Shown here piece by piece: positions 34,951-54,147 of a stretch of DNA of 64,000 nt. The notes beneath the pieces are model-generated. The model was given only the letters and a program-made list of their open reading frames with translations. It did not search any database and was not told the origin of the DNA. The DNA lies in IMG/VR virus record IMGVR_UViG_3300034062_003747, positions 13,826 to 77,825 of that record, one strand, 5' to 3'. The DNA is from a virus. How positions within the stretch are numbered: position 1 is the first letter of the stretch; each line of letters opens with the position of its first letter. Made by a program: the position numbers and the translations under genes.

Positions 34951-34982
34951 CAAATATACGAAATATATCTGATAATACCAAA
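34951..34982 (-). promoter_or_regulatory. Bacteroidota-type sigma promoter
   Basis: TTTGG...CGTATATTTG, 32-bp unit. Confidence 0.72.
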
Positions 34983-36074: not shown

Positions 36075-37277
36075 TTAATAAGTTTTGCTTGAAAAATCGG
36101 TTGGATATTGAGATGGTTTTATGTATCTAATCCAATAGTTAACCGCGTTCTGGTCGTTTATCCATTTTGTTTTATCTGCCCAATCAAACCCTTCCGATGC
36201 GTAATAGGGTTTATAATCTCTGATTATTTGAGCCCTATTTGGGTGTGCAGTTACTTCATCTATTAATCCATCACCATCCGTATCGTATCCATCAATAGAA
36301 CCATCCCTATCGTAATCAATTGGTCTGACTGTATAATCGGGTTGGAGGTTTAATAACTCTTCATCTGGATTATCTACTAATGGGTTATCAAATGGTGGTT
36401 CGTATAATCCCGCTTGTTGATTATCTTCCACCATACCACCTAAGATATCGTCTTTAGTAGAATTTTTTCCACTATCTTTATATATTTGATAATTTTTTTC
36501 CACTAACGGGTCATTCTCACCATACATATTTTTCTTACCAATCAATCCATTAAATGCAATGATAAGGGCAACTGCAAGTGGGTCAAACACAAATACAATA
36601 ATAAATATAAAAAACTTAACAACGGAGTTAAGGGGTACATTGAACGCCTCTGCTACAAAACGAAACCCACCAACTTCTTTTTCTAATTCGATATTATTAT
36701 TTTTAATAACATTTATAGAATCTAACGCTGCATTATTTTTTATAGTTAATTCATCAATTCGTTTTGATATGGAACTAATTTCTCTATCTGCAGATTTAAT
36801 CATCTGAGATACTCTTGATGTAGATTTATCCTTATCAATTTGTTTAGATAAGTTACTCTCTTGAGAATTACGAATATTTTGTTGGTTAGTTAATTGAGTA
36901 GAGTAACGGGTTATCTCCCCATCGTTCTTAGTGATTTGAGTTTGATACACTGCAATATCTCTATCTACCTTTTGTAATCCTAAATTTTGTTGTTGGAAAG
37001 CATTAGAAAGGTATCCAAAAATACCGGCAGAGGTAATCAACATAAGAATACCTACGGCACTTGTTAGATACCACTTATTAAACCCACCAATATCATCCCA
37101 CTTTTGTTTTAGATAAGTGGCTGCAACTAATTTAGCAAATTCTAATGAACCTGCCATTACCATTACTGAAAGTGAAGCACCGGCAAATAGAACACCCAAT
37201 CCCGTTACTGAAAAGTACGCAGCACATCCAGCAACGATTACTGCTGATAATCCGACCAAATACTTTAACCAATTCAT
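36075..37277 (-). CDS. Multi-pass membrane protein with coiled coil and DxDxDG loops
   Basis: Three N-terminal TMs, coiled coil, VFDPLAVAL TM, DYDRDGSIDGYDTDGDGLID. Confidence 0.6.
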   Translation of the reverse strand: MNWLKYLVGLSAVIVAGCAAYFSVTGLGVLFAGASLSVMVMAGSLEFAKLVAATYLKQKWDDIGGFNKWYLTSAVGILMLITSAGIFGYLSNAFQQQNLGLQKVDRDIAVYQTQITKNDGEITRYSTQLTNQQNIRNSQESNLSKQIDKDKSTSRVSQMIKSADREISSISKRIDELTIKNNAALDSINVIKNNNIELEKEVGGFRFVAEAFNVPLNSVVKFFIFIIVFVFDPLAVALIIAFNGLIGKKNMYGENDPLVEKNYQIYKDSGKNSTKDDILGGMVEDNQQAGLYEPPFDNPLVDNPDEELLNLQPDYTVRPIDYDRDGSIDGYDTDGDGLIDEVTAHPNRAQIIRDYKPYYASEGFDWADKTKWINDQNAVNYWIRYIKPSQYPTDFSSKTY

Positions 37278-37533: not shown

Positions 37534-38373
37534 TTAAATTAATTTAGGAACTTGTTTCCAACTAGGGTATGGTAAATTATATGTTGGGAAGTTTAATCTT
37601 AAATACTCATATACATTACATGCATAATCGTAGTTAGTTTTTGGACCAGGATGTACCCCATCTACTCCCTTATCTATTTGTGGTGAAAAATAATTACCAT
37701 CAAACCTATTATTATTATATTCTTTTGGTATCCCATACCATGTAGGTGGAAACGTGGGTATCTCAAACCAACCATTCCATAACCAATTACATCCCTTTGA
37801 CTCTAAAAAATATTTGATTAATTGATGATTTTTATACCAATTAATTAAATCCTCATTATCATTTTGCAATTCAGTTAAATATTTTTGTATTTTTTTACCA
37901 TCTTCAGTTTCTTCCATATATTCTTGTGCCGATGTTGGCATATATGGTTCTACCCCATTATCCTTAGTATATATCTCTCGTCTTAGAGGTGAGGTATACA
38001 TAATTAAAACTAAATCAGGTTTAAGTATTTCATAAAAGGTTATTAGTGCTCTACTTATATAATCATTACTTCCACCAACCCATCCTAAATTAAAATCAAC
38101 CCCATTAGGAATAAGTTTTGAAATTTGATGTGACCAAGTTTCATCATCATTTACTCCCACTCCTTCGGTATTTGAACACCCTATCGACATTATCTTAAAT
38201 CCTTTTTTATGAATTGAATCTCCTCTAAACCCCAATTCATTGTAAGTATATGTACATAATCCAGTACTATCACCACCGGTAGTATTGAATGATTTATTTA
38301 TTCTTTCTTTAAATGAGTTTTTATAAGATAAGGTTTCAAATCCATCTGATGTCCAATATTCTAATGGTTTCAT
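37534..38373 (-). CDS. SGNH/GDSL-like protein
   Basis: YNELGFRG, GCSNTEG, NLG..GGSND, DGVHPG; ends PKLI. Confidence 0.7.
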   Translation of the reverse strand: MKPLEYWTSDGFETLSYKNSFKERINKSFNTTGGDSTGLCTYTYNELGFRGDSIHKKGFKIMSIGCSNTEGVGVNDDETWSHQISKLIPNGVDFNLGWVGGSNDYISRALITFYEILKPDLVLIMYTSPLRREIYTKDNGVEPYMPTSAQEYMEETEDGKKIQKYLTELQNDNEDLINWYKNHQLIKYFLESKGCNWLWNGWFEIPTFPPTWYGIPKEYNNNRFDGNYFSPQIDKGVDGVHPGPKTNYDYACNVYEYLRLNFPTYNLPYPSWKQVPKLI

Positions 38374-39146
38374 ATTGAGTTATTTAAAACAATAAAATCA
38401 TAAAGGGTATTTGCAATTAATTTATATCCATCACCATTTGGGTGTTGAGCCACTTCAATTGGATTTGGTATTTTCTTCTCCCAAATATCTTTATCTTTAA
38501 AATTTTTTATTAACCACGACTCTAAAGATTCAATTCCAAACCCCCAATAATTTGTGGTGTCAATGAGGTGAGTAGTATCGTCATTTTTATTTAAATTCTG
38601 AACCATCAAATCAAACCCATCACACATAATGTATTTTATATTATATTCATTTAACATGTGTTGTAAATAAATTATATAATTTTGATTTATAATATTATAA
38701 TAATTTTGTGTAAATAAATTGCCTAAAAAGAATTTTTTATACTCAGTCAAAAAATTATTAAACTTTTCATCCCCATATGTGTATGATTCTATAAATTTAT
38801 TAGGTAGTTTAGATAGTTCTAATTGACCCCAACTTATCCATTCTCCTTTTGGTAGAAAGGGAACATAATCTCTTAAAGATGAACTCCACATGATAACGAC
38901 AAAATCATCTTTTTTAATTTTATTATTTCTTAAATCATTTATAACCTCATTAAAAATAATATTATTTGCTTTACCGCTCCATCCATTGTTTACAGCCTCT
39001 AACCCCATCTTATTTGCAAGGTGAGTAACCCAACTATTTTTATTTCTAAATAATTGTAATTGATTTCTATCCTTATAAGATTGTTCGGTGGGCCAATCAA
39101 TTCCTACCCCCTCTGTCCAACTATCTCCGTATGCGTATAATTTCAT
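38370..39146 (-). CDS. SGNH/GDSL-like protein
   Basis: YGDSWTEG, N.G.SG..N, QHPNGDGY. Confidence 0.72.
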   Translation of the reverse strand: MKLYAYGDSWTEGVGIDWPTEQSYKDRNQLQLFRNKNSWVTHLANKMGLEAVNNGWSGKANNIIFNEVINDLRNNKIKKDDFVVIMWSSSLRDYVPFLPKGEWISWGQLELSKLPNKFIESYTYGDEKFNNFLTEYKKFFLGNLFTQNYYNIINQNYIIYLQHMLNEYNIKYIMCDGFDLMVQNLNKNDDTTHLIDTTNYWGFGIESLESWLIKNFKDKDIWEKKIPNPIEVAQHPNGDGYKLIANTLYDFIVLNNSI

Positions 39147-39823
39147 ATTATATTTTTTAGTTTACCGTTTAAATTATCTAAGGGCGAATATAACACATGA
39201 GGTTTCCAACATTTAATATAATTATAAAAATTTTTAAAATTATCTAATGGTGGATATAATACAGCCGGATTCCAGTTATCAATTTGATTTATAAAATAAT
39301 TTTCTGCAGAATATCTATTTTCTAATGTTCCCCATCCATTTTTAACATATTGCGGTATTCTATTAATTGATTTAATGGTAGTCCACCAAAAATTACCACC
39401 ATAAAAATTATTAGGACACCAATGTTTAATAATCTCAGGATATTTGATTATATAATTATCAATTCTCATCAACACTCCAGATGTGTCAAACCCCATATTT
39501 AACAACTTAATATGTTCTTTATAATTATCTATCAATGATGCCTCCATATATTTTCTCCACTCAATTTCATATAACTTAGTTGGTTTCGATGCTCCCTTAG
39601 TGTGAATATATAAAATATAATCGGTATTATCAAACTCCTTTACTTCTTCTAACATTTTTAAAAAAGTGTGACATTCGTTTTCGTTAATATTGACAATATT
39701 GGGGTGATATGTGAATTCATCGGTAATCTGATTAAACACTCTTTCCTTTTGTTCCTCAGCTATTTTTAAACCAATGTTATCTGATGTATTACCTGACCAT
39801 ATGTGATGATATATCCGTATCAT
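39143..39823 (-). CDS. Putative glycosyltransferase-like protein
   Basis: LYIHTKG...WR.YM...GNFWW...R..AE; ends KNII. Confidence 0.45.
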   Translation of the reverse strand: MIRIYHHIWSGNTSDNIGLKIAEEQKERVFNQITDEFTYHPNIVNINENECHTFLKMLEEVKEFDNTDYILYIHTKGASKPTKLYEIEWRKYMEASLIDNYKEHIKLLNMGFDTSGVLMRIDNYIIKYPEIIKHWCPNNFYGGNFWWTTIKSINRIPQYVKNGWGTLENRYSAENYFINQIDNWNPAVLYPPLDNFKNFYNYIKCWKPHVLYSPLDNLNGKLKNII

Positions 39824-39881
39824 ATTAATACTTTTTTATTTGTTCTTCTTGTAATTTCTTTTGTTTCATATATTACGATAG

Positions 39882-40505
39882 TTATTTCCAAATAGAAAAT
39901 TGGTTTTGAATCTTATACCAAAATAATTCATCAGTTTTTAATAAAGTATTAATTTCAATCCATTGTTGGGGATATGTTTTGATTAAATACTGTATTAGTT
40001 CAGATTTGGATAACCATATTGGATAGTTTGAAAAATTATACTTTACTTCATCAAAAATAGGTAATTTTTCAATACCCATTTCTTTGGTTAAGAAATCGTT
40101 TAAATCATCCAACATTACAATAGTAGGTGGTGTAGGTAAAGAGACTCCAAACAAATATAGATATTTAAACAATTGATGATGCCAATGTAATTGGGAGTTA
40201 ATATCTATAATAAATTTATTTAACAGTTTCTTTTCTTCTAAAAATTTATTCTCCTTACTCAAACCCCCCAATAAAGATTGACTTTTTCTATTCCAACACC
40301 ACTCTATAAACTCCGTATGTAATGCGGATATTAGCAAATCCATTGGAGTTCTTAAAACTACCCATTTAATATTTGAAGTTAGTGGAATTTTTATTATATC
40401 AAACAAATCAATATATTCTCTATCAATGTTATACACCTCATATAAAAAACGTGAACCACATTTTGGAGGAGTTAGAATTTGCTTGTTGAAGACGTATAAT
40501 TTCAT
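39882..40505 (-). CDS. Sulfotransferase-like protein
   Basis: PPKCGSRFL P-loop-like PSB motif and VLRTP...ISAL. Confidence 0.5.
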   Translation of the reverse strand: MKLYVFNKQILTPPKCGSRFLYEVYNIDREYIDLFDIIKIPLTSNIKWVVLRTPMDLLISALHTEFIEWCWNRKSQSLLGGLSKENKFLEEKKLLNKFIIDINSQLHWHHQLFKYLYLFGVSLPTPPTIVMLDDLNDFLTKEMGIEKLPIFDEVKYNFSNYPIWLSKSELIQYLIKTYPQQWIEINTLLKTDELFWYKIQNQFSIWK

Positions 40506-40511
40506 TTTACA

Positions 40512-41249
40512 TCATATTAATTTGTTGGTTTTTTCATTCAAAATTCTATTACGAATTTCTTTTGCGATAAATTTATGTCCGGCATCATTTTCGTGTGCAT
40601 ATAAATCTTTAGATAATCCATTTTTTATAATAAATTCAAAAAGACCTGTAAATAATAAATCATCAATATTACTAAATTTAATAAACTTACTTAAATCAAT
40701 TTTTTTAAATATATTTAATTTTTTAACAGATTTATCTAATTTAATATAGTTAAAAAAAAGATAATCAATATTATTTTTAATAAAATATTCCTGTAATATA
40801 AACATATAGTGTAAGGTTTCCTCACTTGCCCACGGTTCAGATTTTACTTTGTTATTATTATACATAAATGTATTAAGTTCACTATCCTTTATATATAAAT
40901 AATCTTTTGAATTATTTAAATAATATTCTTCACCCGTTTCAGTTAGGGTTCTTCTTCTATTCGGCCAAGTCCATTCTATAATAACTAAATCAGGTTTTTG
41001 ATTTTGGGAAATTAAATGTTCTATTTCTTCTAAAGTGGTGTGTAATATCCTATCATTTCCTCCACCATAAAAAGCACTATTAAATAATATATTATCTTCA
41101 TTATTTGTATTTTTATAAGAAATTATGTTTTGTATTAAAATTTCTTTAAAATTATCCACAATTGAATACATGAGTATTTTAGGCCAATTTAAACTGAATT
41201 CAGCCCAATCACCCGCAGAATATGAACATCCGTTTACATATAATTTCAT
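40512..41249 (-). CDS. SGNH/GDSL-like protein
   Basis: NGCSYS, GGGNDRI, IIEWT..R, AHENDAGH; ends NKLI. Confidence 0.68.
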   Translation of the reverse strand: MKLYVNGCSYSAGDWAEFSLNWPKILMYSIVDNFKEILIQNIISYKNTNNEDNILFNSAFYGGGNDRILHTTLEEIEHLISQNQKPDLVIIEWTWPNRRRTLTETGEEYYLNNSKDYLYIKDSELNTFMYNNNKVKSEPWASEETLHYMFILQEYFIKNNIDYLFFNYIKLDKSVKKLNIFKKIDLSKFIKFSNIDDLLFTGLFEFIIKNGLSKDLYAHENDAGHKFIAKEIRNRILNEKTNKLI

Positions 41250-41250
41250 T

Positions 41251-42507
41251 TTACATTATATTTTGTTTAATTGTGTTATTTTTTTTCAAATCATTATTTA
41301 AAATCAAATCCAATAATGAATTTTCATTGTTCATTCTAAACATAAATTTAGTATGTACCACATCAGACCATTCTTTACATAATATATAATTTTCATCAAA
41401 GTTTTCCATAAATTCTTTTACGAATTTTGAAAATAATTTACCATCAACTTTATAATTTTTAGATTCTTTATAAAACGGATGTGGTGGAACATCAAATATT
41501 TTTTCAACCATTTCAATTGGGTATTCGTGTGTTGATATAAATGGTATCCCAGCTAATAATAATCCAATTGTTTTCTCCGAAAGGTACTGTGATGTAAATT
41601 TTTGTGTACTCCATGACCAACTCTCACATAGTATTTGCATTTTGGCTTTTGTTAAAACTCTAAAGAATATATCACCACATCCTTTTAAATTTTCAATATA
41701 ACTTATATCATCAAAATCAGTATTACCAAGTATTGAATTATTTTTAATATCATTTGAAACCAATGACCCATTTTTTTTATAATATTTATTATGATTTAAC
41801 GCATCACATGTTTTTAAATAAATTTTATTGTTATTTAAATTTTTTAATTCATTTAAAATACTAACTCTGTTTGATTTATGATTTCTTACACTATACATTA
41901 AATCATAATCAAAATTTAATTTATCATAGACCTGTTTAAATTCATACCACCATCTAATATTTAAATTTTTGTTCCATTGAAAAATAGAATTTGTAAGTGC
42001 AAAGTGAACGTTTTGATATTTGGATTTTACATGATTATTTAGAAAAAAATTATCAGTTATAATATAATGTTGATTTAATTGTTCTAATAGTGATTCTATT
42101 TCATTTGCTTTTTCATCAAACGCAATTTCTTCATATTTTTGAAATATTTTTTCCGTTCTGAAATAAGTGATTAACCACTTTTGGTTCTTTGGACAATCTT
42201 TTAATAGGTTTATAAATATTTTTAATATTTGTTGATTTTCCCTATCCATATAACTTCTATCTGGTAAGATTGGGCCTATTTTTGAATCTGTACTTGAATT
42301 AAAATATGCACTGAAATAATCTAATATATGATATCCATCCTCTTCAAAACTAATTTCTTCTTTAAAGATAAATTCAATATCAGTATTTTTGTATTTACAA
42401 AACACACTACCTGTATTGTTTTCAATAAAATATTTTCTATCGGTTGTATTATTTCCTAAAGTATATAATAACGATTTATCAAACTGATGATGTATATATA
42501 TTTTCAT
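41251..42507 (-). CDS. Putative GT-B glycosyltransferase-like protein (SEKT motif), paralog of 49184..50446
   Basis: QILCES...YLSEKT.GLL.GIPFI; ends QNIM. Confidence 0.45.
   Translation of the reverse strand: MKIYIHHQFDKSLLYTLGNNTTDRKYFIENNTGSVFCKYKNTDIEFIFKEEISFEEDGYHILDYFSAYFNSSTDSKIGPILPDRSYMDRENQQILKIFINLLKDCPKNQKWLITYFRTEKIFQKYEEIAFDEKANEIESLLEQLNQHYIITDNFFLNNHVKSKYQNVHFALTNSIFQWNKNLNIRWWYEFKQVYDKLNFDYDLMYSVRNHKSNRVSILNELKNLNNNKIYLKTCDALNHNKYYKKNGSLVSNDIKNNSILGNTDFDDISYIENLKGCGDIFFRVLTKAKMQILCESWSWSTQKFTSQYLSEKTIGLLLAGIPFISTHEYPIEMVEKIFDVPPHPFYKESKNYKVDGKLFSKFVKEFMENFDENYILCKEWSDVVHTKFMFRMNNENSLLDLILNNDLKKNNTIKQNIM
41366..41426. repeat. Direct repeat, 59/61 identical to 49296-49356
   Basis: gaccattctttacataa..tataattttcatcaaagttttccataaattcttttacgaatt in both paralogs. 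Confidence 0.85.
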
Positions 42508-42516
42508 AACTTTAGT

Positions 42517-42987
42517 TTATAAAAGTGTTATGCATTTTGCACCAAATGAATATACAAGTTTAATCGCCGCTATATTCCATTCAAATATTTCCATTCTAAT
42601 TTCTCTAAATTTTTTAAAAATAATTTTAGTTGTATTGCTATAAAACCAGTTCGAAGATTCATTTGGTCTTTCTATTACATTTGTAATGTATAAATTATAA
42701 GTAAAGCAACTGTCATTATTTATTTTTTTAAACCACCTATAACCAACCGGTTGTTCTTTATAATAAAATATAAACACATAATGACCATCATTAATTCTAG
42801 TATACACGTCAGTTATATTAAACATTCCGTCCCATTTATATTCTATATTAAAATAGTCAATCAATGTTTTCATTGAGTTTATATTTTTTTCTAACGTATC
42901 TAAATCCTCCACCAAAACATAACTTAAATCTTCATGTTCGGTTGTATATTCTATAAAAGTTTCTTTTGTTAGTTTAAAGGTTTTCAT
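42517..42987 (-). CDS. GNAT-like acetyltransferase
   Basis: PVGYRW, YNLYI, WNIAAIKL..SFG; ends ITLL. Confidence 0.55.
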   Translation of the reverse strand: MKTFKLTKETFIEYTTEHEDLSYVLVEDLDTLEKNINSMKTLIDYFNIEYKWDGMFNITDVYTRINDGHYVFIFYYKEQPVGYRWFKKINNDSCFTYNLYITNVIERPNESSNWFYSNTTKIIFKKFREIRMEIFEWNIAAIKLVYSFGAKCITLL

Positions 42988-43586
42988 AATATTGTTTGGT
43001 ATTTTTTATTAACAAATAAAATATTTAAATCTTTCCAATTTATTTTTTTATTAATCTCCTCTTTATTAATTACTATAAAGTTATTTTTTTCTAAATATTC
43101 AATAAGATAGGTGTGCCTATTTTCAGTATTATATAAATTTTCATTTCTACTCCCTTCAACTTGTCCTCTTTTTATTAAAGATATTTTTTCATTTAGGGAT
43201 TTAAGAATATCCAAATCACTACCTTGAGCATCACAATGAAAGTAATCAATTGAATCTATATTATTTTCATCTATAAATGTATCTAATCTTATAACTTCTA
43301 CATCCACTTCCATTTCATATTCGGTGATTTTATTTTCAATACTATAATTGGATAGTTCATTTATTGAAGATGACATTTTATTTTTTCCAATATAAAATTT
43401 TGAAATTCCATTTATCATTCCCACCGCTTTATTTATTATTTTAATATTTTTTTTATTAAAAAATCTTAATTTTAATTTTTCCGCGTGATAGTTGTCCGGT
43501 TCAAAACAATAAACAAACGAATCATCTTTGAGATATTTTTCAGTATCTTCACCATCAAATCCACCTATTTCTATAATTGTTTTCAT
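42984..43586 (-). CDS. FkbM-family methyltransferase
   Basis: IEIGGFDG, FEP, RLDTF, HCDAQGSD; ends QTIL. Confidence 0.85.
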   Translation of the reverse strand: MKTIIEIGGFDGEDTEKYLKDDSFVYCFEPDNYHAEKLKLRFFNKKNIKIINKAVGMINGISKFYIGKNKMSSSINELSNYSIENKITEYEMEVDVEVIRLDTFIDENNIDSIDYFHCDAQGSDLDILKSLNEKISLIKRGQVEGSRNENLYNTENRHTYLIEYLEKNNFIVINKEEINKKINWKDLNILFVNKKYQTIL

Positions 43587-43587
43587 T

Positions 43588-44181
43588 TTAAATTAGTTTA
43601 GTAATGACATTATTTGAAGGATAAATAAAAATACAACCTCTTTTTTTAACTCCATTCATATATGATTCTTTACTAACATATTTTTCGTAACTATTTTTTC
43701 CATAAATCAACTCAACGTTAGATTTAATATGTTTCCAATTCAATTCTATGTTATTTCCGTTTTCATCAATATAACGTTCATAATCCCAATTCTCGTGGCC
43801 ACAATCAAAATCATGTATAATAATAATTGGTTTATAATTAAAATTTGAAATTATTTTCAATTCATCATTTATCGGCCAAGTACCCCAATGAGCATCTAAA
43901 AATATAAAAAATTTATCATGCCCTATTTCTATAAAAAATTTCTCTAAACATTCGGGTGAATTTCCTTTTAATATTTTAATATTCGGATTATTATTAAATC
44001 TATAATATAAAGGGAAATATTTACTATCTAATTCACAGCTATAAACTTTATCAAAAATGTGTTGTAAAATATCGACAGATTCTCCTTTGTTTGTACCCGT
44101 TTCTATTATAATGTTATAATCAAATTTTTGTTTTAATTTCATTATATCAATTATTAACATGCTATCTTGCTTAAACCCCAT
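43588..44181 (-). CDS. Class I SAM-dependent methyltransferase-like
   Basis: IIETGTNKG, SCEL, GNSP, FLDAH, IIIHD; ends TKLI. Confidence 0.72.
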   Translation of the reverse strand: MGFKQDSMLIIDIMKLKQKFDYNIIIETGTNKGESVDILQHIFDKVYSCELDSKYFPLYYRFNNNPNIKILKGNSPECLEKFFIEIGHDKFFIFLDAHWGTWPINDELKIISNFNYKPIIIIHDFDCGHENWDYERYIDENGNNIELNWKHIKSNVELIYGKNSYEKYVSKESYMNGVKKRGCIFIYPSNNVITKLI

Positions 44182-44217
44182 AGTAATATATTTTTTTATT
44201 TTCTATTAAGATGTTTA

Positions 44218-44973
44218 TCATAATAATCTTAAAGGTTTTTTTTTATACTTTGTTAGATTATAATTTATTGTTTCATACTCAACATCTTCAATTGTAATTT
44301 GAATTTTTGATTTACAATTTTGATTTAGATTATCGGTTTTTTTTAAAATAACATTTGCTAACATGGGTTGGACTCCGATTGAATAATGAACATCTTCATT
44401 GTTATGAAAATTATTTTTAATTAACCAATTAGCAAACCCATCTTCAAATTTAATATTTGTTCCATAATTTAATAGTGTATCCGTATAAGATGACTCCTCA
44501 ATGAAAATATAAAATATAGATATTTTTTTAGATATTAAATATTCAAATAACGGATTTATTAATTTAAATAATCTAAAATTATAATCTAATGAATTTTTTA
44601 AATAATAATCTACTAAAGATAAAACTCCTTCGTTTTCTTCTAACACTCTACTATATTTTTTTTTGTTAATAATTTCATTATCATATAGTTCATTAAATAA
44701 TACATTAGTAGATTCAATTGTATTAGTTACTTTATTTAAAAAACAACCTCTGGAAAGAAAAGAAAAATTAATGAGTATTATATCCCCCTCCCTATAATTT
44801 TGTAATTGTTCTAATATTTTTCTAAAAATAATTTCGTTTGATGCTCCTCCAACTGTGAATGCGGGAATATATTTATACTCTATACTATCCGCAATATGAT
44901 GACAAAAATGTTTATTATCACCATAATAATTTACTGTTCCATAACTATCACCAAAATGAAATAATTTTTTCAT
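44218..44973 (-). CDS. SGNH/GDSL-like protein
   Basis: FGDSYG, GASNE, DVHY; ends LRLL. Confidence 0.65.
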   Translation of the reverse strand: MKKLFHFGDSYGTVNYYGDNKHFCHHIADSIEYKYIPAFTVGGASNEIIFRKILEQLQNYREGDIILINFSFLSRGCFLNKVTNTIESTNVLFNELYDNEIINKKKYSRVLEENEGVLSLVDYYLKNSLDYNFRLFKLINPLFEYLISKKISIFYIFIEESSYTDTLLNYGTNIKFEDGFANWLIKNNFHNNEDVHYSIGVQPMLANVILKKTDNLNQNCKSKIQITIEDVEYETINYNLTKYKKKPLRLL

Positions 44974-44974
44974 A

Positions 44975-46138
44975 TTAAAAATTTGTGAATATTTGTATAT
45001 TTTGATAATCCGTTTTCAATTTTTTTAATTTATTAACTTCGTCTAAAAACATTACATGCTCAGGATGTTCTGAGTTTCTTACATTTTTTATTTTAAATTG
45101 TCCTTCTGTAAATGTTCCCCAGTTATTAATATGGATAAAGTTTACTTCCGTTTTCATACCATTTAGTTTTTGTAAGTAATCTGCCAATTCCACAAACCCA
45201 ATCATTTCCGTATAATTATTATTTTGAACTACGAATGTTAATCTTACAAAATCTAAATTTGGTATTTTAGTGAATATAAATTGTAAGTTTTTATAAAGAA
45301 TATCCCAATTACCACCTAATCTTATTTGTTCATAAGTTTCCTTTGTACATGCGTCTATACTAATTTCTGCCGTTATTCTTGGTATTGAATGTAGATTTTC
45401 TAATCTATCCCATATTTTTTCTGTCCATCCGTTTCCGTTTGTGTGTAAATGTAAATTTTTTGTATTTGGGTATTTTTCCATTGTAATGGATTTTAAAAGA
45501 TTACGCCAAAACTCACTCCCAAATCCATCGCCACTTGCGGTAATGTATAATTCGTGAGCATCATTCATTGCAAATTCTAAAATTTTATCCTGTATGGTTT
45601 CTGATTTTTCTCTTTCTTTGCCCGTAGTATTAATAAAATCGGTTCTACATGATGGGCATTTAAGGTTACAACTTCTATCATGTGAAAAAATAACACACTC
45701 GGGCCCCCATGGTAAATCTGATATTTTTTCTTCAATAATTTTTTTAAACTTCTCTTCTCCGTCTGGGTTAATGGTTTTATTGTTCCAAAGTTTATGAAAT
45801 GTTTTTTCGTCAAAAATTGGGAAATACCCATTATCATAAACACTTTCATCTATTTCTTCATTATTCCATTTTTGTAAAAATCCACATTCTTTTTCATCAC
45901 AATATTTCATACTACCATCGTGCATAGAATCTCTCAATTTGATTGCAACCTCACTATTCCAAATATTATTCCAATTATCTGTCAATGCATTACCAGCAGG
46001 TCCACACTTAACCCAAGCGTTTACCCATCGTTTTTCTTCCTCACTCCAAGCACCGGAACAACATTGCCAAACTAAACCATTTGACTGAAATTCGGCATTT
46101 CTGAATGGTGCTACACAAAATCCTTTTTTATTACTCAT
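44975..46138 (-). CDS. Radical SAM protein with N-terminal Twitch/SPASM-like domain
   Basis: N-terminal FCVAPF...QCC...C..C; core SCNLKCPSC, HTNG, SIDA, YEQIR.GG. Confidence 0.85.
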   Translation of the reverse strand: MSNKKGFCVAPFRNAEFQSNGLVWQCCSGAWSEEEKRWVNAWVKCGPAGNALTDNWNNIWNSEVAIKLRDSMHDGSMKYCDEKECGFLQKWNNEEIDESVYDNGYFPIFDEKTFHKLWNNKTINPDGEEKFKKIIEEKISDLPWGPECVIFSHDRSCNLKCPSCRTDFINTTGKEREKSETIQDKILEFAMNDAHELYITASGDGFGSEFWRNLLKSITMEKYPNTKNLHLHTNGNGWTEKIWDRLENLHSIPRITAEISIDACTKETYEQIRLGGNWDILYKNLQFIFTKIPNLDFVRLTFVVQNNNYTEMIGFVELADYLQKLNGMKTEVNFIHINNWGTFTEGQFKIKNVRNSEHPEHVMFLDEVNKLKKLKTDYQNIQIFTNF

Positions 46139-47361
46139 ATTAACGTTGTATTTTTTTTAGGAAAATTTCCATTATTGATTAATATGTAACTTTCAATTGG
46201 AAAATTTAATCTTGTTGATTTAGGTACATTTAACACTTTTTTTAATTGGGAATTATTTTTAATACATACTAAATTTTTATTTGATATTATCTTTTCTAAT
46301 TCATTTGGTAATTTTTTTTCTTTATATGTTTTCCAAAAAGTAGTATTGTTTTTTGAACAATTATAATGATGTCTAATTATAATCATATTTTGTCTTTGTA
46401 TATTATTTATACTTTCATTAAATTCATTTTCACTTAAAGTATTATTTAAATATTTTTTAAAAGTTTTTAATTGTACCACAATTGTCATAATTGAGGTTGC
46501 TTCCAATGGTTCTAAAAAACCAGAACTTAACCCTACAATTAAACAATTATTTATTAATGTTTTTTCATAAGTTCCTGGTTCAAAAGTAATTGTTTTATTA
46601 ATTTGTATATCATTTCCAAATTTGTTTATTATTTCCGTTTTTGCAATATCTTCTGAAATAAGTTTTTTGTCAAAAATATATCCACACCCCCATCTATTTT
46701 GTAATGGTATTTGCCAAACCCACCCATAATCCATTGCAATTGCATTTGTTCTTGTATTAACCGTAACATCATTCCTTTTTAAGAAAAAAGGTATTGCTGT
46801 ATTAACTATTAATTCATCAGCATAAGTTTTCCACTTTAATTTAAATAGTTTTGGGGTTAACCTATGAAATCCACTACAATCAAATACAAAATCCGTATCA
46901 TAATTGATATTATTTTCTAATTTAATACTATTAATATCACCTTTTTCATTTTGTTCAATATTTTTTATTTTCCCATCTATGTGTTCTACTCCTCTGATTA
47001 TCGCAATTTCTTTTAAATAATCTGCTAATAATCTTGCATCAAAATGATATGCATATACACTTTTATCTTCTTCCATTAAATCACCAAATCCATGAACATA
47101 TGAATAATCTATATCTGACCAGTTGTGGAAATGAATACCTATTTTTTTTGTTCCATTTACTTTTTTTAATAAATCGCTTTCATCAATTTCTAATTCCGAT
47201 AGGAAATTTACCAAATTTGGAGTACTCCCTTCACCGGCACCTAGTATACCAATTTCCGAACTTTCTATTAGTTTTACGTTTGAATTTTTGTAATATTTTT
47301 TTGCAAAAATTGCAGTTAACCATCCGGCTGTTCCTCCACCAATTATTATAATATTGTTCAT
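46135..47361 (-). CDS. Flavin-dependent halogenase (tryptophan halogenase family)
   Basis: GGGTAGW, GAGEGSTP, Lys in GTKKIGI, DCSGF, WVWQIP, GFLEPLEATSI; ends TTLI. Confidence 0.88.
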   Translation of the reverse strand: MNNIIIIGGGTAGWLTAIFAKKYYKNSNVKLIESSEIGILGAGEGSTPNLVNFLSELEIDESDLLKKVNGTKKIGIHFHNWSDIDYSYVHGFGDLMEEDKSVYAYHFDARLLADYLKEIAIIRGVEHIDGKIKNIEQNEKGDINSIKLENNINYDTDFVFDCSGFHRLTPKLFKLKWKTYADELIVNTAIPFFLKRNDVTVNTRTNAIAMDYGWVWQIPLQNRWGCGYIFDKKLISEDIAKTEIINKFGNDIQINKTITFEPGTYEKTLINNCLIVGLSSGFLEPLEATSIMTIVVQLKTFKKYLNNTLSENEFNESINNIQRQNMIIIRHHYNCSKNNTTFWKTYKEKKLPNELEKIISNKNLVCIKNNSQLKKVLNVPKSTRLNFPIESYILINNGNFPKKNTTLI

Positions 47362-47840
47362 ATCAACGTTGTTTTTTTAATTAAATCCTCATAGTTAACA
47401 AATAACAAAGCACTTTTTCTAATTCCTTTTGTTATTTTACTTATTTCATGTAATCTATCTGATTTAAAAAAATAAGGAATTCCTGGTGTTTTGTCAACAA
47501 TAGAATCGGGATTATATAAAATATATTCCCCTCCATCGTAATCATCATTTATATGAAATCCCACAACATACGCCCTATTTTTATAACCCCTTTCAACTGA
47601 ATCAATATGTTTACCAAAATAATCACCCACATTATATTTATGGAGTGTTAAATTATAATCGTAAGATTTTAGTTTTTCACCACTTTCAATTTCAAACCAA
47701 TTTAATAGTTTAGTGGTTATATTCATTTCATTATTTGTAAGAACCGCAAATTCGTAACTTCGGTTTTTTAATTTTCTAAAATCCGTATTATTCCAAAAAG
47801 ATTTTAAAAAATCTAATTCAATATCACTATATAACTTCAT
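47358..47840 (-). CDS. 2OG-Fe(II) oxygenase (prolyl-hydroxylase-like)
   Basis: KY..GD.F..HID, DYDGGE, HEI..ITKGIRKS; ends TTLI. Confidence 0.85.
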   Translation of the reverse strand: MKLYSDIELDFLKSFWNNTDFRKLKNRSYEFAVLTNNEMNITTKLLNWFEIESGEKLKSYDYNLTLHKYNVGDYFGKHIDSVERGYKNRAYVVGFHINDDYDGGEYILYNPDSIVDKTPGIPYFFKSDRLHEISKITKGIRKSALLFVNYEDLIKKTTLI

Positions 47841-47842
47841 TT

Positions 47843-48451
47843 TTAATATATATTTTTTTTAGAACCATAATCCTTAGTATAATCTAATATTGTAAATCCT
47901 CCTGCATAAACGATTCGTTCTATATCCGAACTACGATTTAATTCAGGTTTGTGTAATAAATTTGCTGGAAATAAAATTAAATCTCCTACTTGTGGTAAAT
48001 ACGATACTTCTATACCTTCATTTGTTCTAAATAATATTTTTCCTTCTTGCTCGTTTAAATTATCAGGCATTTGTGCATAATAAACAAATGACCAATCTAT
48101 ATCCGTTTTTAAAGTATCGCTAAAAGTATGTGTATGAAATCTTGTCCAGTTGTTATTTTTATTAGAGACATATATCCATTCGGTACTAAAATATAAATTT
48201 ATATCATTTGTATTATAATTTAAAAATTTAAAAATTTTTTTATATATTTTAGTATTTAAATTTTTAATTGCTTTTGTTTTTAAAATTATATATGATTGAA
48301 TACCATGTTCTTTAACAGATTCGACTGATGTTTTTTTATTTACTTTCATATTAAATTTTAAATCTTTTATTAATTCAAAATTATTAATAGTTGGTAAATT
48401 TGTAATATAAAAAGAAACCACATCAGTTATTTTTATTTCTTTAAATTTCAT
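47843..48451 (-). CDS. 2OG-Fe(II) oxygenase-like
   Basis: HTH, WSFVYY, GDLILFPANLLH, ERIV; ends KNIY. Confidence 0.75.
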   Translation of the reverse strand: MKFKEIKITDVVSFYITNLPTINNFELIKDLKFNMKVNKKTSVESVKEHGIQSYIILKTKAIKNLNTKIYKKIFKFLNYNTNDINLYFSTEWIYVSNKNNNWTRFHTHTFSDTLKTDIDWSFVYYAQMPDNLNEQEGKILFRTNEGIEVSYLPQVGDLILFPANLLHKPELNRSSDIERIVYAGGFTILDYTKDYGSKKNIY

Positions 48452-49183
48452 TTATATTAAATTTATTTTATGTTTTTTTTCTTGTTTTAATAAAAACTCA
48501 TTTAATTCTTCTGCTATTTTTGCATGGCCAGAAATAGAAAGGTGCGATGATTCTGTATTTAAAAATTTATATTTTGTTGACCACTTTAAAATAGAATATT
48601 CGTTTTCCAAATTAAAAAAATTTCTTTTTTTTAATTCTTCTAACTGATTATCATTGTTTATTTCTGGCCAATACATTAATAAAATTTTATTATTTTTTTT
48701 CTCCGCATGTGAAACCAACGTATCAATTTGATATAATAAATAATTAAAAGTTTCTTTTTCATTATAATGATGTTCAATATAAGATGAATACATTTTTAAC
48801 ATTTCATCAATCGTATCATTTTTGTTTATATTTTTATCGTACATTTCCGAAATTAATGGATTTTTAAAATCAACTTCAAAATTTACAAAATTTGATTTTT
48901 CATTATATGTAGGTATAACATTAAATGCGTTGGGTTGGTAATTTACCCATTTTTGAAAATATGAACTATATAAACCAAGTCTATGTAACCAAGTAATTTG
49001 TAATATTATAAACGAATTTTCTATATTGTGTTTTGTTATATAATCATATATTTTATAAATAATATGATTATTACTTAATCCCGGATGTGATAAATTACTA
49101 ACATCGTATCCCATCTCTTTTAATATAGCACCATATGACTTAGTACCACATGAATATGAACAACCGGAAATTAAAACTTTCAT
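48452..49183 (-). CDS. SGNH/GDSL-like protein
   Basis: SGCSYS, NLS.PG.SN, QIT...R, SHLS..GH; ends INLI. Confidence 0.68.
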   Translation of the reverse strand: MKVLISGCSYSCGTKSYGAILKEMGYDVSNLSHPGLSNNHIIYKIYDYITKHNIENSFIILQITWLHRLGLYSSYFQKWVNYQPNAFNVIPTYNEKSNFVNFEVDFKNPLISEMYDKNINKNDTIDEMLKMYSSYIEHHYNEKETFNYLLYQIDTLVSHAEKKNNKILLMYWPEINNDNQLEELKKRNFFNLENEYSILKWSTKYKFLNTESSHLSISGHAKIAEELNEFLLKQEKKHKINLI

Positions 49184-50446
49184 TTAAATTAGTTTTGATG
49201 TGGTGGTGGTGGAATATTTAAAGTCGTTAATCATCAAATCTAATAAAGAGTTTTCATTATAAAATTTATCCATAAAAGCTATATGACATATATCTGACCA
49301 TTCTTTACATAAAGTATAATTTTCATCAAAGTTTTCCATAAATTCTTTTACGAATTCTGCAATCTTAACCGCATCTCCTTTTATTTTTTTACTTTCATTA
49401 TAAAATGGGTGAGGTGGTATATCTAAAATTTTATTTAAAACTTCTAATGGGTAACTATGTGTTGATATAAATGGTATACCTGATAATACAAACCCTATGG
49501 TTTTTTCTGAAAGGTAATGTGATGCAAAATCTGAATCTGCCCACGACCAACTTTCATCTAATATTTGCATTTTTGAAATATTTAATACTCTATAAAATAA
49601 ATCTAAACCAAGTCTATTTTTATGTATTAAATGTAAATTATCAAAATCGTTATCACCTTCCATAGAATTTAGGTATATATCCGTTACTTTATTTTCATGT
49701 GTTAAATTTAGTTCACTATTTTTACGAGCATCTGACCTTTGTAAAAAAATCCTATTATTATTAAGTTTTTTTAATTCATTTAATAAAAGTATTCTATTGT
49801 ATTTATATGACCTAATTGAAAAACACAAATCATAATCAAAATTTAATTTATCATATATTTTTTTAAATTCATAATACCATCTTATTTCTGCATGAAAATT
49901 CCAATACCACATTGAATTTGAAAAAGTATAATAAAAATTAGAGTATTTTAATCTTATTTCATCTTTTATAAAAACTTCTTCTAATACTATTTTATGATTT
50001 TTTAATTTTAAAAAAGAATTTTCTATATCGTATAATAAATCCATATTTTTCTTATAAAATACATTTTCATATTTAAATAAAGTCTTTTCACCATTGAAAA
50101 ACATTATTATCCAATTCGTTTTACCTTCTAATAAATTACATAAATTATCAACGGGATTATTGACTATATTATCTATTGAGACATCTTTTTTATATAACGC
50201 TTGTGTAATGTTTTCAAATTTTATATCTTTAGTATTTTGTGATATTATTGTATTTAAATCTAATAAATGATATCCATCAGTTTCATCAGACATTTCTATT
50301 TTAAAAATAAATTCGATTTCCGTACCTTTATATTTACATTTTACACTACCCGCTTGGTTTGTAATATTAAATTCTTTATCTGTTGTATTATGGGCAAGTT
50401 TATAAAAGGTATCTTCTGAGTAATAATGGTGGATATATATTTTCAT
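49184..50446 (-). CDS. Putative GT-B glycosyltransferase-like protein (SEKT motif), paralog of 41251..42507
   Basis: MKIYIHH start, QILDES...YLSEKT...GIPFISTH; ends SKLI. Confidence 0.45.
   Translation of the reverse strand: MKIYIHHYYSEDTFYKLAHNTTDKEFNITNQAGSVKCKYKGTEIEFIFKIEMSDETDGYHLLDLNTIISQNTKDIKFENITQALYKKDVSIDNIVNNPVDNLCNLLEGKTNWIIMFFNGEKTLFKYENVFYKKNMDLLYDIENSFLKLKNHKIVLEEVFIKDEIRLKYSNFYYTFSNSMWYWNFHAEIRWYYEFKKIYDKLNFDYDLCFSIRSYKYNRILLLNELKKLNNNRIFLQRSDARKNSELNLTHENKVTDIYLNSMEGDNDFDNLHLIHKNRLGLDLFYRVLNISKMQILDESWSWADSDFASHYLSEKTIGFVLSGIPFISTHSYPLEVLNKILDIPPHPFYNESKKIKGDAVKIAEFVKEFMENFDENYTLCKEWSDICHIAFMDKFYNENSLLDLMINDFKYSTTTTSKLI
49296..49356. repeat. Direct repeat, 59/61 identical to 41366-41426
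   Basis: Direct comparison of the two segments. Confidence 0.85.
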
Positions 50447-51061
50447 TTATAGAATTTTTTTAGTTCCATTAATTCTATACTTTTTGTCAATATTCATATG
50501 TTTTCCCATAACTATTTCATCGTATGTTATATTAAAATATTTACAAAACTTCATCATATTTTCGTTTTGGTTTTCAATATATAAATCTTCATAATAGAAT
50601 ATTGGAATAGTATATGTTTCAGAAATATAAGTAAACGTGTTTTTTTCGTTTTCTAATAAACTTTTATATTTGTTTATCGAATTAGTATCTATCTGTTGGT
50701 AAACATATTTTGAATTCCAATTATCAGATTTTCTTGCATTGGCTAAACTTTCAGTTTGAGAATCAATATCTCTTCGTATTAGAATACCAATAATATCAAA
50801 TTTTGATTTTAAAAGTGTAATTAGTTCATCGGTGTTTAGATGTTGTAATTCAATAGGAAAGGAATCATTTCCGATTTTATTTTCTACAAAAATATTTGGA
50901 TTAGATATTATTTTTTTAAACTGATATTCTATACCAGTATCTCTGATTGCAGTAGTATTAAACGGTTCTCTATATACTATGGTATCTAAATTAGATTCTC
51001 TTACATAACGGGTTAAGTTTAAACTACCTGTTCTACCCTGTGATAATAATAACCTTTTCAT
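50447..51061 (-). CDS. Sulfotransferase-like (Stf0-type) protein
   Basis: SQGRTGS, EPFN, LIRRD...Q.ES, YYEDL; ends KKIL. Confidence 0.65.
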   Translation of the reverse strand: MKRLLLSQGRTGSLNLTRYVRESNLDTIVYREPFNTTAIRDTGIEYQFKKIISNPNIFVENKIGNDSFPIELQHLNTDELITLLKSKFDIIGILIRRDIDSQTESLANARKSDNWNSKYVYQQIDTNSINKYKSLLENEKNTFTYISETYTIPIFYYEDLYIENQNENMMKFCKYFNITYDEIVMGKHMNIDKKYRINGTKKIL

Positions 51062-51633
51062 TATATTAATTTTTTATCTACATTAAATTGTCTTAATTTA
51101 TTTTTTGTATTTAAAATATCATAATCCAATTTGATTTCTTTATTTTTTAACCCATCACCATAATATATAGATTCATATGTATCCAATGGTATATTAAATT
51201 TTTCGGATAATTTTCTTAAATATGTATTCTCTATGGTAAGTTGATTCATTATTGGATTGACATCCACATCTAAATTGTATACATATTTTACATCAAATTT
51301 ATTTCCGTTATGTAGATTAATAAATGATTCGGCATGTTCTTTTACATTTTCTCTACTTAATAAAATGGTAGTATCGAATTTTGGAATTAATTCGGAGTAA
51401 AAATCATAACACTTTTCAAAATAAGATATTGGAAGACTTTCGAACTTTGGTGATGTATTATCTATTTGGTGTAATATTGTTTTTACAACAACATTTTCTT
51501 TATTGTATTTTTTTCGTTCTAATCCCCAAGATGCATATGGTTCAAATATTATTTTTAAATTATAACTATTTGCTATTGATTTTTGCAAAGATGTCGAACC
51601 ACATCTAGCACTAGATATAATTAAAAAATTCAT
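51061..51633 (-). CDS. Sulfotransferase-like (Stf0-type) protein
   Basis: SSARCGSTSL, FEPY, VVK, LSREN...ES, TYESIY; ends KKLI. Confidence 0.65.
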   Translation of the reverse strand: MNFLIISSARCGSTSLQKSIANSYNLKIIFEPYASWGLERKKYNKENVVVKTILHQIDNTSPKFESLPISYFEKCYDFYSELIPKFDTTILLSRENVKEHAESFINLHNGNKFDVKYVYNLDVDVNPIMNQLTIENTYLRKLSEKFNIPLDTYESIYYGDGLKNKEIKLDYDILNTKNKLRQFNVDKKLI

Positions 51634-51653: not shown

Positions 51654-51797
51654 CTAACTATGTTTCGCTTTCAAAAATTGTACAAATTTTGCTAAAATTG
51701 TTTGTACATTTGCTTTCTGTGTTGTATTGGTTAAAACAATAGTTCTATTATGTACTGCGGTTGCTGGTGTTGATTTATATTTTGCTGGAGTTTCCAT
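51654..51797 (-). CDS. 47-aa peptide (not in ORF track)
   Basis: METPAKYKSTPATAVHNRTIVLTNTTQKANVQTILAKFVQFLKAKHS; fills the gap, ATG 7 nt after the upstream stop. Confidence 0.6.
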   Translation of the reverse strand: METPAKYKSTPATAVHNRTIVLTNTTQKANVQTILAKFVQFLKAKHS

Positions 51798-51804
51798 AGT
51801 TATA

Positions 51805-53631
51805 TTATTTATTGTGTACTAAAATATTATTAGCGTAAAAATTATGATGATTAGAAACACTTAATAAGTTATAAACCGTATGAGTTTCTTCTAATATTTC
51901 AACTGATACTATTTTTTTATCTTCCAATAAATCAGTTTTACAAATATCATTAGATTGTAATTCATTAGCCTTAACCCATCCTTTTTCTTTTACAAAAAAT
52001 GGATGCTCGGTTGTAGTAATAATAGTTTTTTCACCATCAAAAGTTAATTTGATTACGGATGAAACTTCGTGTTTTTTCAAATCACCAACTACTCCTGTTT
52101 CGTTAAATCCTGTTTCTTCATTATAGGTAAGAACATTTTCACCAACTATAACATCTTCAATATTTTTTAAAGAATTATCACTAAGTGTAATTTGAGTTCC
52201 TGCTGGAAAGCACCAGTTGTGGGTAATAATAAATGAAGTGTTTATAATATTATCAGTTCCTGCTATTAAATATGTATCGACATCTTCAACGTCAATTTCA
52301 ACTATTTTATGAGTATCCTCATTTAAAACGTAAAGATTATTTTCATCTATTGTTACATTATTTCCTGCGTTATCTACTAACAAATCCGTTGCTGGGTCAA
52401 TCTTTAATGCCTTTTTAAATACTATTGAGTTGGTATCTGTTTGATATACTAAAAATGTATTTGATACTGAGGCGTAAATTGTGTCACCCCCTATTTTTAA
52501 CTCATTTATAATATTGTTTTCAATACTTGCAGAAAATATGTTTTCAACAAAAGATGAAGTAGTATATGAACCAGTAGGAAGTGTACTTCCCTCATTTTCC
52601 CAACTAAATACTTCATCAACGTTATCACGCATTGGTGAACCACTTATAAAGTATGATTTAACCCTGTCACCAACAATCAAATTTTGCATTTGAGTTAATG
52701 AATCATCTTCCATTACTATTTCATGTGTACCTAATAAACCACCCTTTGTTCTTTGAGGTTGTTTTGTAAAATTGGTAGCAAATTCATAATAATGTTTTGG
52801 AGACAATAAGTTATTGATAATGGTGTTATCAATTTCTGTCGATAGATTGGTTGGTAAATCAAATATTGATTCAATTTGGTAATCTAATAATGGAATAATA
52901 TCTAAGTTTGCTCCGTAAATAATATTAAAGCTTCTTATTGATGTAATTTTATTATTTGAACTTACACTACTTGGATTGAAGTGATATTGTTGAATCATAT
53001 CTCCCTCTGCAGCTTGATTTACAATAAATTCATTAATTCTTACATCAGCTGATAATTCAGATTTTCCAACTTTATAAAATGCTCCTTGTTGTTTTTGTTC
53101 TATTTTTTTCTTTACCACAAAATCAGGAATACTATTATTGTCGTTTATAGTTCCGTCTAATGTATTGTAAGTCCCATCAATTAAAGATGAGTGGTAAAAA
53201 TTACATACTGAACCGGTTTCATCATTATCAGCAAATAATTTTAAAAGCTCTAACTTACCCTTTGCATATTCAGAATCTACAACTGCAGTTTCATCATATG
53301 CTAATCTTAATATAAATTTACTTTCACTATCTTCTGGAGTTGTTGGGAATATACTAGTTAATTCTGTTATAGTTTTAGTAAAGGTAGTAATATATGGAGC
53401 ACTTTCACTTAAAGATTGTGATAAGTGATTTACAAAATTACTATGTAATTCATCCTTATATACAACCGATACCTCAGTTATATTATTACTATTTAATATA
53501 CCAAAAAAGTTTGTAAAATCAATCAATGGTAGTGCGTTATTTAAAAACGCTGTATCTGTGTTAATTTCTAATAATCTTTCATTTCCATTATTATCAATAA
53601 CAAAATCGGATGAGAATAGTATTCCTTTCAT
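51805..53631 (-). CDS. Circularly permuted ATP-grasp-like ligase fused to two tandem Hint domains
   Basis: N-terminal SDFVID..G..RLLEINTDT, later FVVKK and MIQQY; Hint1 about aa 298-472 ending ITHN; W473; Hint2 CFPAGT...TTEHPF...VYNL...FYANNILVHN-K. Confidence 0.7.
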   Translation of the reverse strand: MKGILFSSDFVIDNNGNERLLEINTDTAFLNNALPLIDFTNFFGILNSNNITEVSVVYKDELHSNFVNHLSQSLSESAPYITTFTKTITELTSIFPTTPEDSESKFILRLAYDETAVVDSEYAKGKLELLKLFADNDETGSVCNFYHSSLIDGTYNTLDGTINDNNSIPDFVVKKKIEQKQQGAFYKVGKSELSADVRINEFIVNQAAEGDMIQQYHFNPSSVSSNNKITSIRSFNIIYGANLDIIPLLDYQIESIFDLPTNLSTEIDNTIINNLLSPKHYYEFATNFTKQPQRTKGGLLGTHEIVMEDDSLTQMQNLIVGDRVKSYFISGSPMRDNVDEVFSWENEGSTLPTGSYTTSSFVENIFSASIENNIINELKIGGDTIYASVSNTFLVYQTDTNSIVFKKALKIDPATDLLVDNAGNNVTIDENNLYVLNEDTHKIVEIDVEDVDTYLIAGTDNIINTSFIITHNWCFPAGTQITLSDNSLKNIEDVIVGENVLTYNEETGFNETGVVGDLKKHEVSSVIKLTFDGEKTIITTTEHPFFVKEKGWVKANELQSNDICKTDLLEDKKIVSVEILEETHTVYNLLSVSNHHNFYANNILVHNK

Positions 53632-54109: not shown

Positions 54110-54147
54110 AATTTTTTTTATTTTAGTTAAACAATATCTCTAATACT

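Follow-up and report, generated by a model that had tools for sequence, protein, structure and literature searches.

The stretch of DNA analysed here (hereafter the window) comprises 64,000 nucleotides (nt) of one strand, positions 13,826-77,825 of IMG/VR virus record IMGVR_UViG_3300034062_003747, and is part of a 77.8-kb sequence from an uncultured aquatic phage with an estimated completeness of 44%. The minus strand carries all genes of the window, and the capsid-like protein encoded on it is distantly related to proteins of Flavobacterium and Microcystis myophages. Positions 37534-51633 (minus strand) are occupied by a block of 18 genes with a G+C content of 22-27%, compared with ~30% in the surroundings, and 14 of the 18 proteins end in the tripeptide [KRTN]-[LI]-[LIM], which elsewhere inside these proteins has a frequency of 1%. 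This C-terminal ending, referred to below as the tag, is real and selected at the protein level, and it is gained and lost as a unit specific to the cassette of genes that carries it.

Two untagged proteins are encoded ahead of the block, again on the minus strand, as are all genes listed in this and the following paragraph. The first, fam4 (51805..53631, ending in VHNK), is predicted from its Pfam Hint match and from a structural model searched with Foldseek to consist of a glutathionylspermidine synthetase (GspS)-like ATP-grasp domain, a first Hint domain (Hint1), a Trp and a second Hint domain (Hint2). Directly after it lies the gene of a 47-amino-acid (aa) protein ending in KAKHS (51654..51797).

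The block begins with a 190-aa protein without a Pfam match (51061..51633, fam6, tail KKLI), from a family tagged in 50 of 53 cases, and its 204-aa paralogue identified with BLAST (50447..51061, also fam6, KKIL). These are followed by a 420-aa protein with a glycosyltransferase-like GT-B fold (49184..50446, fam1, SKLI), the last eight residues of which are predicted to be disordered, a 243-aa protein characterised by its translation (48452..49183, INLI), and two 2-oxoglutarate (2OG)-Fe(II) oxygenases, one of 202 aa that ends untagged in KNIY (47843..48451, fam7; 33 of 41 relatives are tagged) and one of 160 aa (47358..47840, fam0, TTLI) from the family that forms the minimal tagged partner of fam4. 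A 408-aa flavin (Trp) halogenase (46135..47361, fam21, TTLI), tagged in 118 of its 120 closest relatives, is followed by a 387-aa radical SAM/SPASM protein recognised through Pfam, which is untagged and ends in TNF (44975..46138, fam52). After a 251-aa protein (44218..44973, LRLL) and a gap of 36 nt come a 197-aa protein, again described from translation (43588..44181, TKLI), a 200-aa FkbM-type methyltransferase assigned by Pfam (42984..43586, fam39, QTIL) and a 156-aa protein (42517..42987, fam16, ITLL) whose relatives are mostly untagged (2/25 tagged). The remaining six genes encode a 418-aa paralogue, by BLAST, of the GT-B-like protein (41251..42507, fam1, QNIM), a 245-aa DUF6071-like protein found with Pfam (40512..41249, fam51, NKLI), an untagged 207-aa protein ending in SIWK (39882..40505, fam31) for which the majority of relatives are tagged, a 226-aa protein known from translation (39143..39823, KNII), a 258-aa GDSL/SGNH hydrolase ending untagged in NNSI (38370..39146, fam2; relatives tagged 66/72) and, as the operon's last gene with none downstream of it, a 279-aa protein (37534..38373, fam25, PKLI), 8 of 13 relatives of which end in ...LPK without LI.

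Translation of the 18 genes bore out the C-termini reported in an initial annotation of this DNA, including all 14 tails from PKLI to KKLI, the near miss KNIY at 47843, the eight exact LI ends and the presence of PKLI on the terminal gene at 37534 despite the lack of a gene behind it. The leucines of the tails are encoded by TTA, TTG, CTA and CTT, the isoleucines by ATA and ATT, and the stop codon is TAA or TGA, so the variation in codons that had been described is real. The same annotation called the enzymes unrelated, which holds in that BLAST links just two paralogue pairs (418/420 aa and 190/204 aa) and needs qualifying in that several genes share a superfamily (SGNH/GDSL-like, 2OG oxygenase). 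About six proteins outside the operon had been said to end in two aliphatic residues; we counted five of 59 open reading frames (ORFs) ending in [LIM][LIM], and the proposed enrichment test gave 14/18 inside versus 5/59 outside the operon (Fisher p = 3e-8). Within the operon proteins the internal frequency of the [LIM][LIM] dipeptide is 4%, which corresponds to a binomial probability of 8e-17 for the tails, and under a codon-shuffle null 0.78 of the 18 proteins were tagged on average, with none of the 20,000 trials exceeding 5.

Some proteins encoded outside the operon have similar ends. The fam19 protein at 59605-59964 ends in RKLI, and only 3 of its 20 relatives are tagged; the NT5C-like nucleotidase at 55800-56285 ends in KRLL, with LL in 6/6 relatives. 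Ahead of the window in the same genome, a non-cassette protein of ~380 aa (L163, 12026-13162) ends in ...TKLL, and its counterpart in a complete 287-kb relative (G002, 155772-156941) ends in ...TKLI, a tag-like end that is conserved outside the cassette.

Related viral loci were collected in two sets (n=159 combined). Set 1 consists of 79 viral loci retrieved with an alignment of homologues of the 420-aa fam1 protein, and set 2 of the 80 best of 393 viral contigs matched by a fam4 alignment, so that the second set is anchored independently of the tagged families. The 420-aa protein itself has 447 metagenome homologues, and among the matches listed all 120 end in a hydrophobic dipeptide preceded by variable residues.

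The loci allow selection on the peptide to be separated from effects of the DNA at gene junctions. A nucleotide-level by-product of translational coupling or of AT-rich junctions (TTAATATGA, TAATG), or else of paralogy, might account for the tag, inasmuch as ATGA or TAATG occurs at many junctions, the operon contains its two paralogue pairs, and ATA is over-used for the last Ile (.71 versus.49). This last difference is the sole codon skew, and it arises because ATGA overlaps require ATA. Among 497 distinct cassette genes from the related loci, however, the tag was equally frequent whatever the junction: 119/120 genes at ATGA, 130/131 at TAATG and 48/50 (96%) at gaps of >50 nt were tagged, as were all 13 genes with no same-strand gene following. 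Leucine codons in the tails are unbiased with respect to internal ones (TTA.64/.63, TTG.16/.15, CTA.11/.10), and the only constant nucleotide in the last two codons is the middle T. In the window, tight junctions (-4 to +3 nt) are accompanied by a tag in 2 of 16 cases outside the operon and in 10 of 13 inside it, where four of five non-tight junctions are tagged as well. In Pelagibacter phage HTVC008M (34% G+C), a halogenase and five 2OG oxygenases lie in overlapping operons and none of them is tagged. Paralogy, for its part, is at odds with the ~20 tagged families that show no mutual BLAST similarity. An AT-matched null and the coupling sequence were thus both tested, and the tag survives both; we give an origin in junction DNA or paralogy next to no credence, and the claim of the initial annotation that selection acts on the peptide stands.

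All-against-all clustering of the proteins of the 79 loci gave a bimodal distribution, with 24 families in which at least 80% of members are tagged and 41 families in which <30% are. Tagged genes occur in runs of 5-17 consecutive genes with untagged genes on both sides, and across the 159 loci the runs mark ~20 families unrelated by BLAST, including at least eight different folds, among them 2OG oxygenases, GT-B-like proteins, SGNH hydrolases, a flavin halogenase, FkbM, SET and CmcI-like methyltransferases, zinc-ribbon-like proteins and DUF6734. The gene content of the cassette differs between phages, as the plug-and-play exchange envisaged in the annotation would lead one to expect. In a family-weighted logo, K leads at position -4 (52%) and -3 is S, K, T or N; L (.61) outnumbers I (.27) at -2, and I (.63) outnumbers L (.25) at -1, so that the tail can be written as a variable linker followed by K-x-[LI]-[IL] (K-x-Phi-Phi, Phi being hydrophobic) at the free C-terminus. 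Entropy profiles of eight families show the same anatomy, namely a conserved domain, a high-entropy, indel-rich linker and two to four low-entropy residues at the very end. In a structural model of fam1 (mean predicted local distance difference test score, pLDDT, 88), the final helix reaches residue 406, and the pLDDT is below 50 over residues 413-420. Comparison with halogenases from the Protein Data Bank was tried as a test for an appended tail and discarded, as the phage enzyme is shorter by ~100 aa and can be aligned only as far as residue 358.

The zinc-ribbon-like family fam5 (CxxC...CGCP) shows the tag as an addition to a domain: forms of 72-77 aa stop after the domain and are untagged, and forms of 93-108 aa add ~20 residues ending in K-x-L-I. 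Short untagged and long tagged paralogues co-occur in the same phage in L013 (4472-4690 and 7308-7595) and L016; copies are also present in L043 and L057, and there is none in the window. Outside the cassette, members of tagged families lack the tag. In two loci (L060 and L061) fam1 ends just past its domain, four fam2 GDSL genes and the short fam5 paralogues are untagged, as is fam27 at positions 10111-10950 of the window, and the same holds for a 2OG oxygenase and a glycosyltransferase-like gene near the tail fibre in the phage's own genome. Eight relatives of fam25 end in ...LPK where the window copy ends in ...PKLI, and fam31 is untagged in the window and tagged in most relatives; tags have therefore been gained and lost.

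The protein that accompanies the tagged genes most constantly is fam4. A model of its residues 1-473 (pLDDT 79) matches GspS, YgiC and YjfC over the first ~300 residues (Foldseek E ~5e-5 over 300+ columns against 2ioa, 7uk8 and 7uk6), and the remainder matches bacterial intein-like (BIL) domains and mini-inteins. By fold and by its conserved metal/ATP residues, the modelled N-terminal domain qualifies as a GspS-like ATP-grasp; its invariant residues are E22, N24, K174 and R233. Hint1 has lost Cys1 and kept its terminal His-Asn, and is predicted to be a cleavage-only domain able to cut solely at its own C-terminal end. What stands behind the His-Asn takes three forms. The first, seen in the window as Trp and Hint2, is a Trp, an Asp-Pro or nothing, then one or two more Hint domains; the second, present in most relatives, is a peptide of 25-30 aa rich in Cys, Trp and Tyr that ends in P-K-[LI]; and the third is a Cys/Trp/Tyr-rich peptide followed by a domain with the signature SDxxxKxNI that resembles the self-cleaving S74 chaperone. 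With this layout, fam4 looks like a self-releasing precursor.

In nearly all loci an ORF of 45-50 aa ending in K-H-[LSM] follows fam4 directly. It is untagged, has a conserved amphipathic C-terminal part, sometimes with 1-2 residues beyond K-H-[L/S/M], and has an N-terminal half that co-varies with the fam4 subtype. The ORF is present even where fam4 has no tagged neighbours, for example in L120. Four loci (L137, L141, L120 and L121) contain multi-Hint fam4 genes without any tagged neighbour; the ligase-Hint protein can therefore exist without accessory enzymes.

Wherever a contig includes the fam4-side edge of the cassette, fam4 is present, and no tagged run without it was found on the examined contigs of this kind. 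The loci that lack fam4 are cut by the contig end on that side, with the exception of L060 and L061, where fam1 stands alone and untagged. Tagged runs flank fam4 in set 2 as well, and the tagged fraction declines with gene distance from fam4 in both independently anchored sets (from.86 to.17 and from.68 to.15). The smallest system consists of fam4 and a single tagged 2OG oxygenase. The complete 287-kb relative has a cassette of 15 genes, 14 of them tagged and the other being fam4, of which there is a single copy; elsewhere in this genome 14 of 332 genes are tagged. Because it is the sole untagged protein that always accompanies the tagged genes, fam4 is the candidate hub or reader of the tag.

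We read the tails as a selected short linear motif that marks the tailoring enzymes of one mobile phage cassette and acts as an address or docking tag, and we regard this reading as having about an even chance of being correct. The initial annotation had offered docking on a scaffold, targeting to a compartment or a shared degron as roles of the tag, and each of the three is retained here with a probability of its own. That a single common reader exists is probable. That this reader is fam4 is a candidate proposal, drawn from co-occurrence, in which we place somewhat less belief than doubt; it is the best candidate because it co-occurs constantly, looks like a substrate carrier and belongs to a fold family that handles the C-terminal carboxylates of peptides. 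GspS-type enzymes act on the terminal carboxylate of a peptide. In the proposed scheme, the tag would be an address recognised by one common partner, most probably the ATP-grasp-Hint protein and perhaps with it the 45-50-aa protein encoded behind, and any enzyme that gained the four residues would be recruited to a tethered peptide or protein substrate before that substrate was released by Hint. The logic would be the reverse of the usual leader-peptide scheme of peptide natural products.

A lineage-dependent change in the tag bears on the question of the reader. Leu at -2 is commoner with the Cys-peptide subtype of fam4 than with the S74-like subtype in 8/8 families present in both, and therefore unrelated proteins shift together. 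This concerted shift fits one reader with a lineage-dependent preference. A terminal Phe that co-varied with fam4 subtype c came mostly from one family and was dropped as evidence. Small heat-shock proteins bind I-x-I tails, and the HSP20 encoded next to the cassette was considered as a reader and rejected as the main candidate, as its gene is a backbone gene that does not always adjoin the cassette and the aliphatic residues of the tag are adjacent, not alternating. A complex prediction of fam4 residues 1-473 with ATP and Mg against the oxygenase at 47358-47840 scored 0.17, below the mark, and counts neither way.

Several observations weigh against a docking tag read by fam4. The link between fam4 and the tag is one of co-occurrence, and a reader encoded by the host would explain the concerted shift at -2 just as well. 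The invariant E22, N24, K174 and R233 point to an active ligase more than to a passive platform. Not every cassette member carries the tag, exceptions being the radical SAM protein of the window and, in most loci, fam16 and fam25. Most contigs are fragments, and for this reason the statement that the tag never occurs without fam4 is one about local context; likewise, all loci have a G+C content of 25-34%, so the tag has been seen in one range of base composition only.

In a different role for the tag, the GspS-like ATP-grasp would activate the C-terminal carboxylate of each tagged enzyme and couple it covalently to an amine; candidate amines are an N-terminus freed by Hint, a polyamine or a Lys of the 47-aa protein. 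The fold match to GspS, YgiC and YjfC and the catalytic-type invariant residues speak for such a reaction, as does the strictly terminal position of the motif, which no residues follow, compared with the K-H-[LSM] end of the small protein, which tolerates 0-2 extra residues. Each ligation would consume one enzyme molecule, however, and the substrate of the ligase could just as well be the C-extein or the small protein; furthermore, we know of no precedent for such a scheme. We consider it improbable that the tagged enzymes are ligase substrates. A combined version, in which the tag is both docking handle and, through its C-terminal Ile/Leu carboxylate, acyl donor and the phage encodes a ubiquitin-independent protein conjugation that tethers enzymes to a substrate or address, strikes us as just as doubtful.

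If the reader were instead encoded by the host, the tag could be a shared degron or host handle, a basic and aliphatic C-terminus recognised by an AAA+ protease, an unfoldase or a chaperone of the host, through which the enzymes would be short-lived or remodelled together. The disordered, exposed tail presents a hydrophobic free C-terminus behind Lys, and the lineage-wide shift at -2 also suits a host reader. Non-polar C-termini destabilise proteins in Escherichia coli, and ClpX recognises the MuA tail ...RRKKAI, both of which count for a degron. On the other hand, a degron leaves the restriction of the tag to genes near fam4 unexplained, since enzymes of the same families elsewhere in the genomes and in HTVC008M are untagged, and there is no apparent gain for the phage in destabilising exactly these enzymes. 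We rate a degron as unlikely.

Targeting is the remaining alternative: enzymes bearing the tag would be taken up into the capsid or some other structure that the phage builds, in the way that encapsulins take up proteins with cargo peptides. A folded enzyme, a flexible linker and a short C-terminal peptide are the layout of encapsulin cargo, and one fam4 subtype bears the tail-fibre-type self-cleaving S74-like domain. The cassette, however, contains no shell or structural gene and moves relative to the structural genes, the structural proteins are untagged, and the enzymes require the cytosolic cofactors 2OG, reduced flavin adenine dinucleotide (FADH2) and S-adenosylmethionine (SAM). We think loading into a phage structure very unlikely.

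Several known systems invite comparison with the tag. Peroxisomal targeting signal type 1 (PTS1) is [SAC]-[KRH]-[LM]-COOH and is read by the tetratricopeptide repeat (TPR) domain of Pex5. Like the phage tag, it is a free C-terminal signal of three to four residues, basic then aliphatic, on many unrelated enzymes that share one receptor; unlike PTS1, the phage K-x-[LI]-[IL] has two terminal aliphatics, and there is neither a Pex5 nor an organelle. The last three residues of the tag are [SKTN]-[LI]-[IL], and the SKL in the window continues with Ile. Encapsulin cargo resembles the cassette in that a flexible linker and then a short peptide form the C-terminus of unrelated enzymes, whose genes cluster with the reading partner. 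The phage motif, however, is shorter and of other sequence, and it is a ligase-Hint protein that is clustered with the enzymes where encapsulins have an HK97-fold shell; no HK97-fold shell gene appeared in Pfam and PHROG scans of the cassette proteins or in the gene orders. The cohesin-dockerin pairs of the cellulosome and the PCNA-interacting protein (PIP) box and other clamp motifs likewise give interchangeable enzymes a common C-terminal handle for one scaffold. A dockerin, in contrast, is a folded Ca-binding domain of ~70 aa and the phage tag four residues after a linker of 5-20 residues; the PIP and clamp motifs are longer, differ in sequence and belong to DNA enzymes, whereas the phage handle needs a free terminus.

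In ribosomally synthesized and post-translationally modified peptide (RiPP) pathways, the leader and the RiPP recognition element (RRE) direct many tailoring enzymes to one precursor, and the cassette similarly has a halogenase, a radical SAM/SPASM protein, 2OG oxygenases and methyltransferases beside a precursor-like protein. RiPP enzymes carry the leader-binding domain, however, whereas all that the phage enzymes carry is a tiny peptide, whose receptor would belong to the substrate, with release by a Hint domain instead of a leader protease. ClpX C-motif 2 (MuA ...RRKKAI-COOH) and [LIM]-[DES]-[WF]-COOH, the signal of cytosolic Fe-S clients, are also C-terminal tri- or tetrapeptides that bring unrelated proteins to one machine, but they have another consensus and cellular readers and are not bound to one gene cassette. 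The class I PDZ ligand ([ST]-x-Phi-COOH) is defined by S or T at the third-last position. In the tags S or T stands there in ~40% of cases and K or N in most others, and the scanned cassette and flanking proteins gave no PDZ match. By its form the tag most resembles PTS1 and the cargo peptides of encapsulins, whereas its logic comes nearest to that of dockerins, PIP boxes and RiPP leader recognition; it shares the defining features of none of these.

Searches of the literature turned up no account of either the tag or the cassette. To our knowledge, C-terminal address tags on unrelated enzymes have been described for eukaryotic organelle import and for encapsulins and not for a phage enzyme cassette, and we know of no comparably short tag tied to a single gene module. 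Recruitment to the ATP-grasp-Hint protein, if true, would amount to a natural plug-and-play rule by which four residues add a new chemistry to a pathway that modifies a peptide or protein, would account for the rapid exchange of the cassette's enzyme genes and would give synthetic biology a portable and very small device for scaffolding enzymes. In practice the tag also identifies the genes that belong to the system, those of many families of unknown function included.

Relatives of fam4 were found on at least 393 IMG/VR viral contigs by alignment search; the halogenase as a single query gave no match among viral contigs, where an alignment query was required. Among isolated phages there was no match to the operon with megablast or to the 420-aa protein with tblastn, and fam4 matched them through its Hint part only, with no match in HTVC008M. 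The sole match among 185,579 prokaryote genomes was a 2.4-kb contig (L082) in a Candidatus Pelagibacterales metagenome-assembled genome bin, which is a weak hint of the host or, alternatively, a binning artefact of AT-richness.

The flanks of the cassette (34035-36072 and 53729-56285) resemble auxiliary genes of marine myophages, with UvdE, an IscA-like Fe-S protein, HSP20, an HD-domain protein, the NT5C nucleotidase and an FG-GAP repeat protein. In the window the cassette sits in a conserved backbone between the HSP20 gene (53729-55237 side) and a 400-aa gene (36075-37277 side). In L007 it lies upstream of the fam12, HD and HSP20 genes, and in L011 it has other neighbours (L033 was also compared); the cassette behaves as a mobile island.

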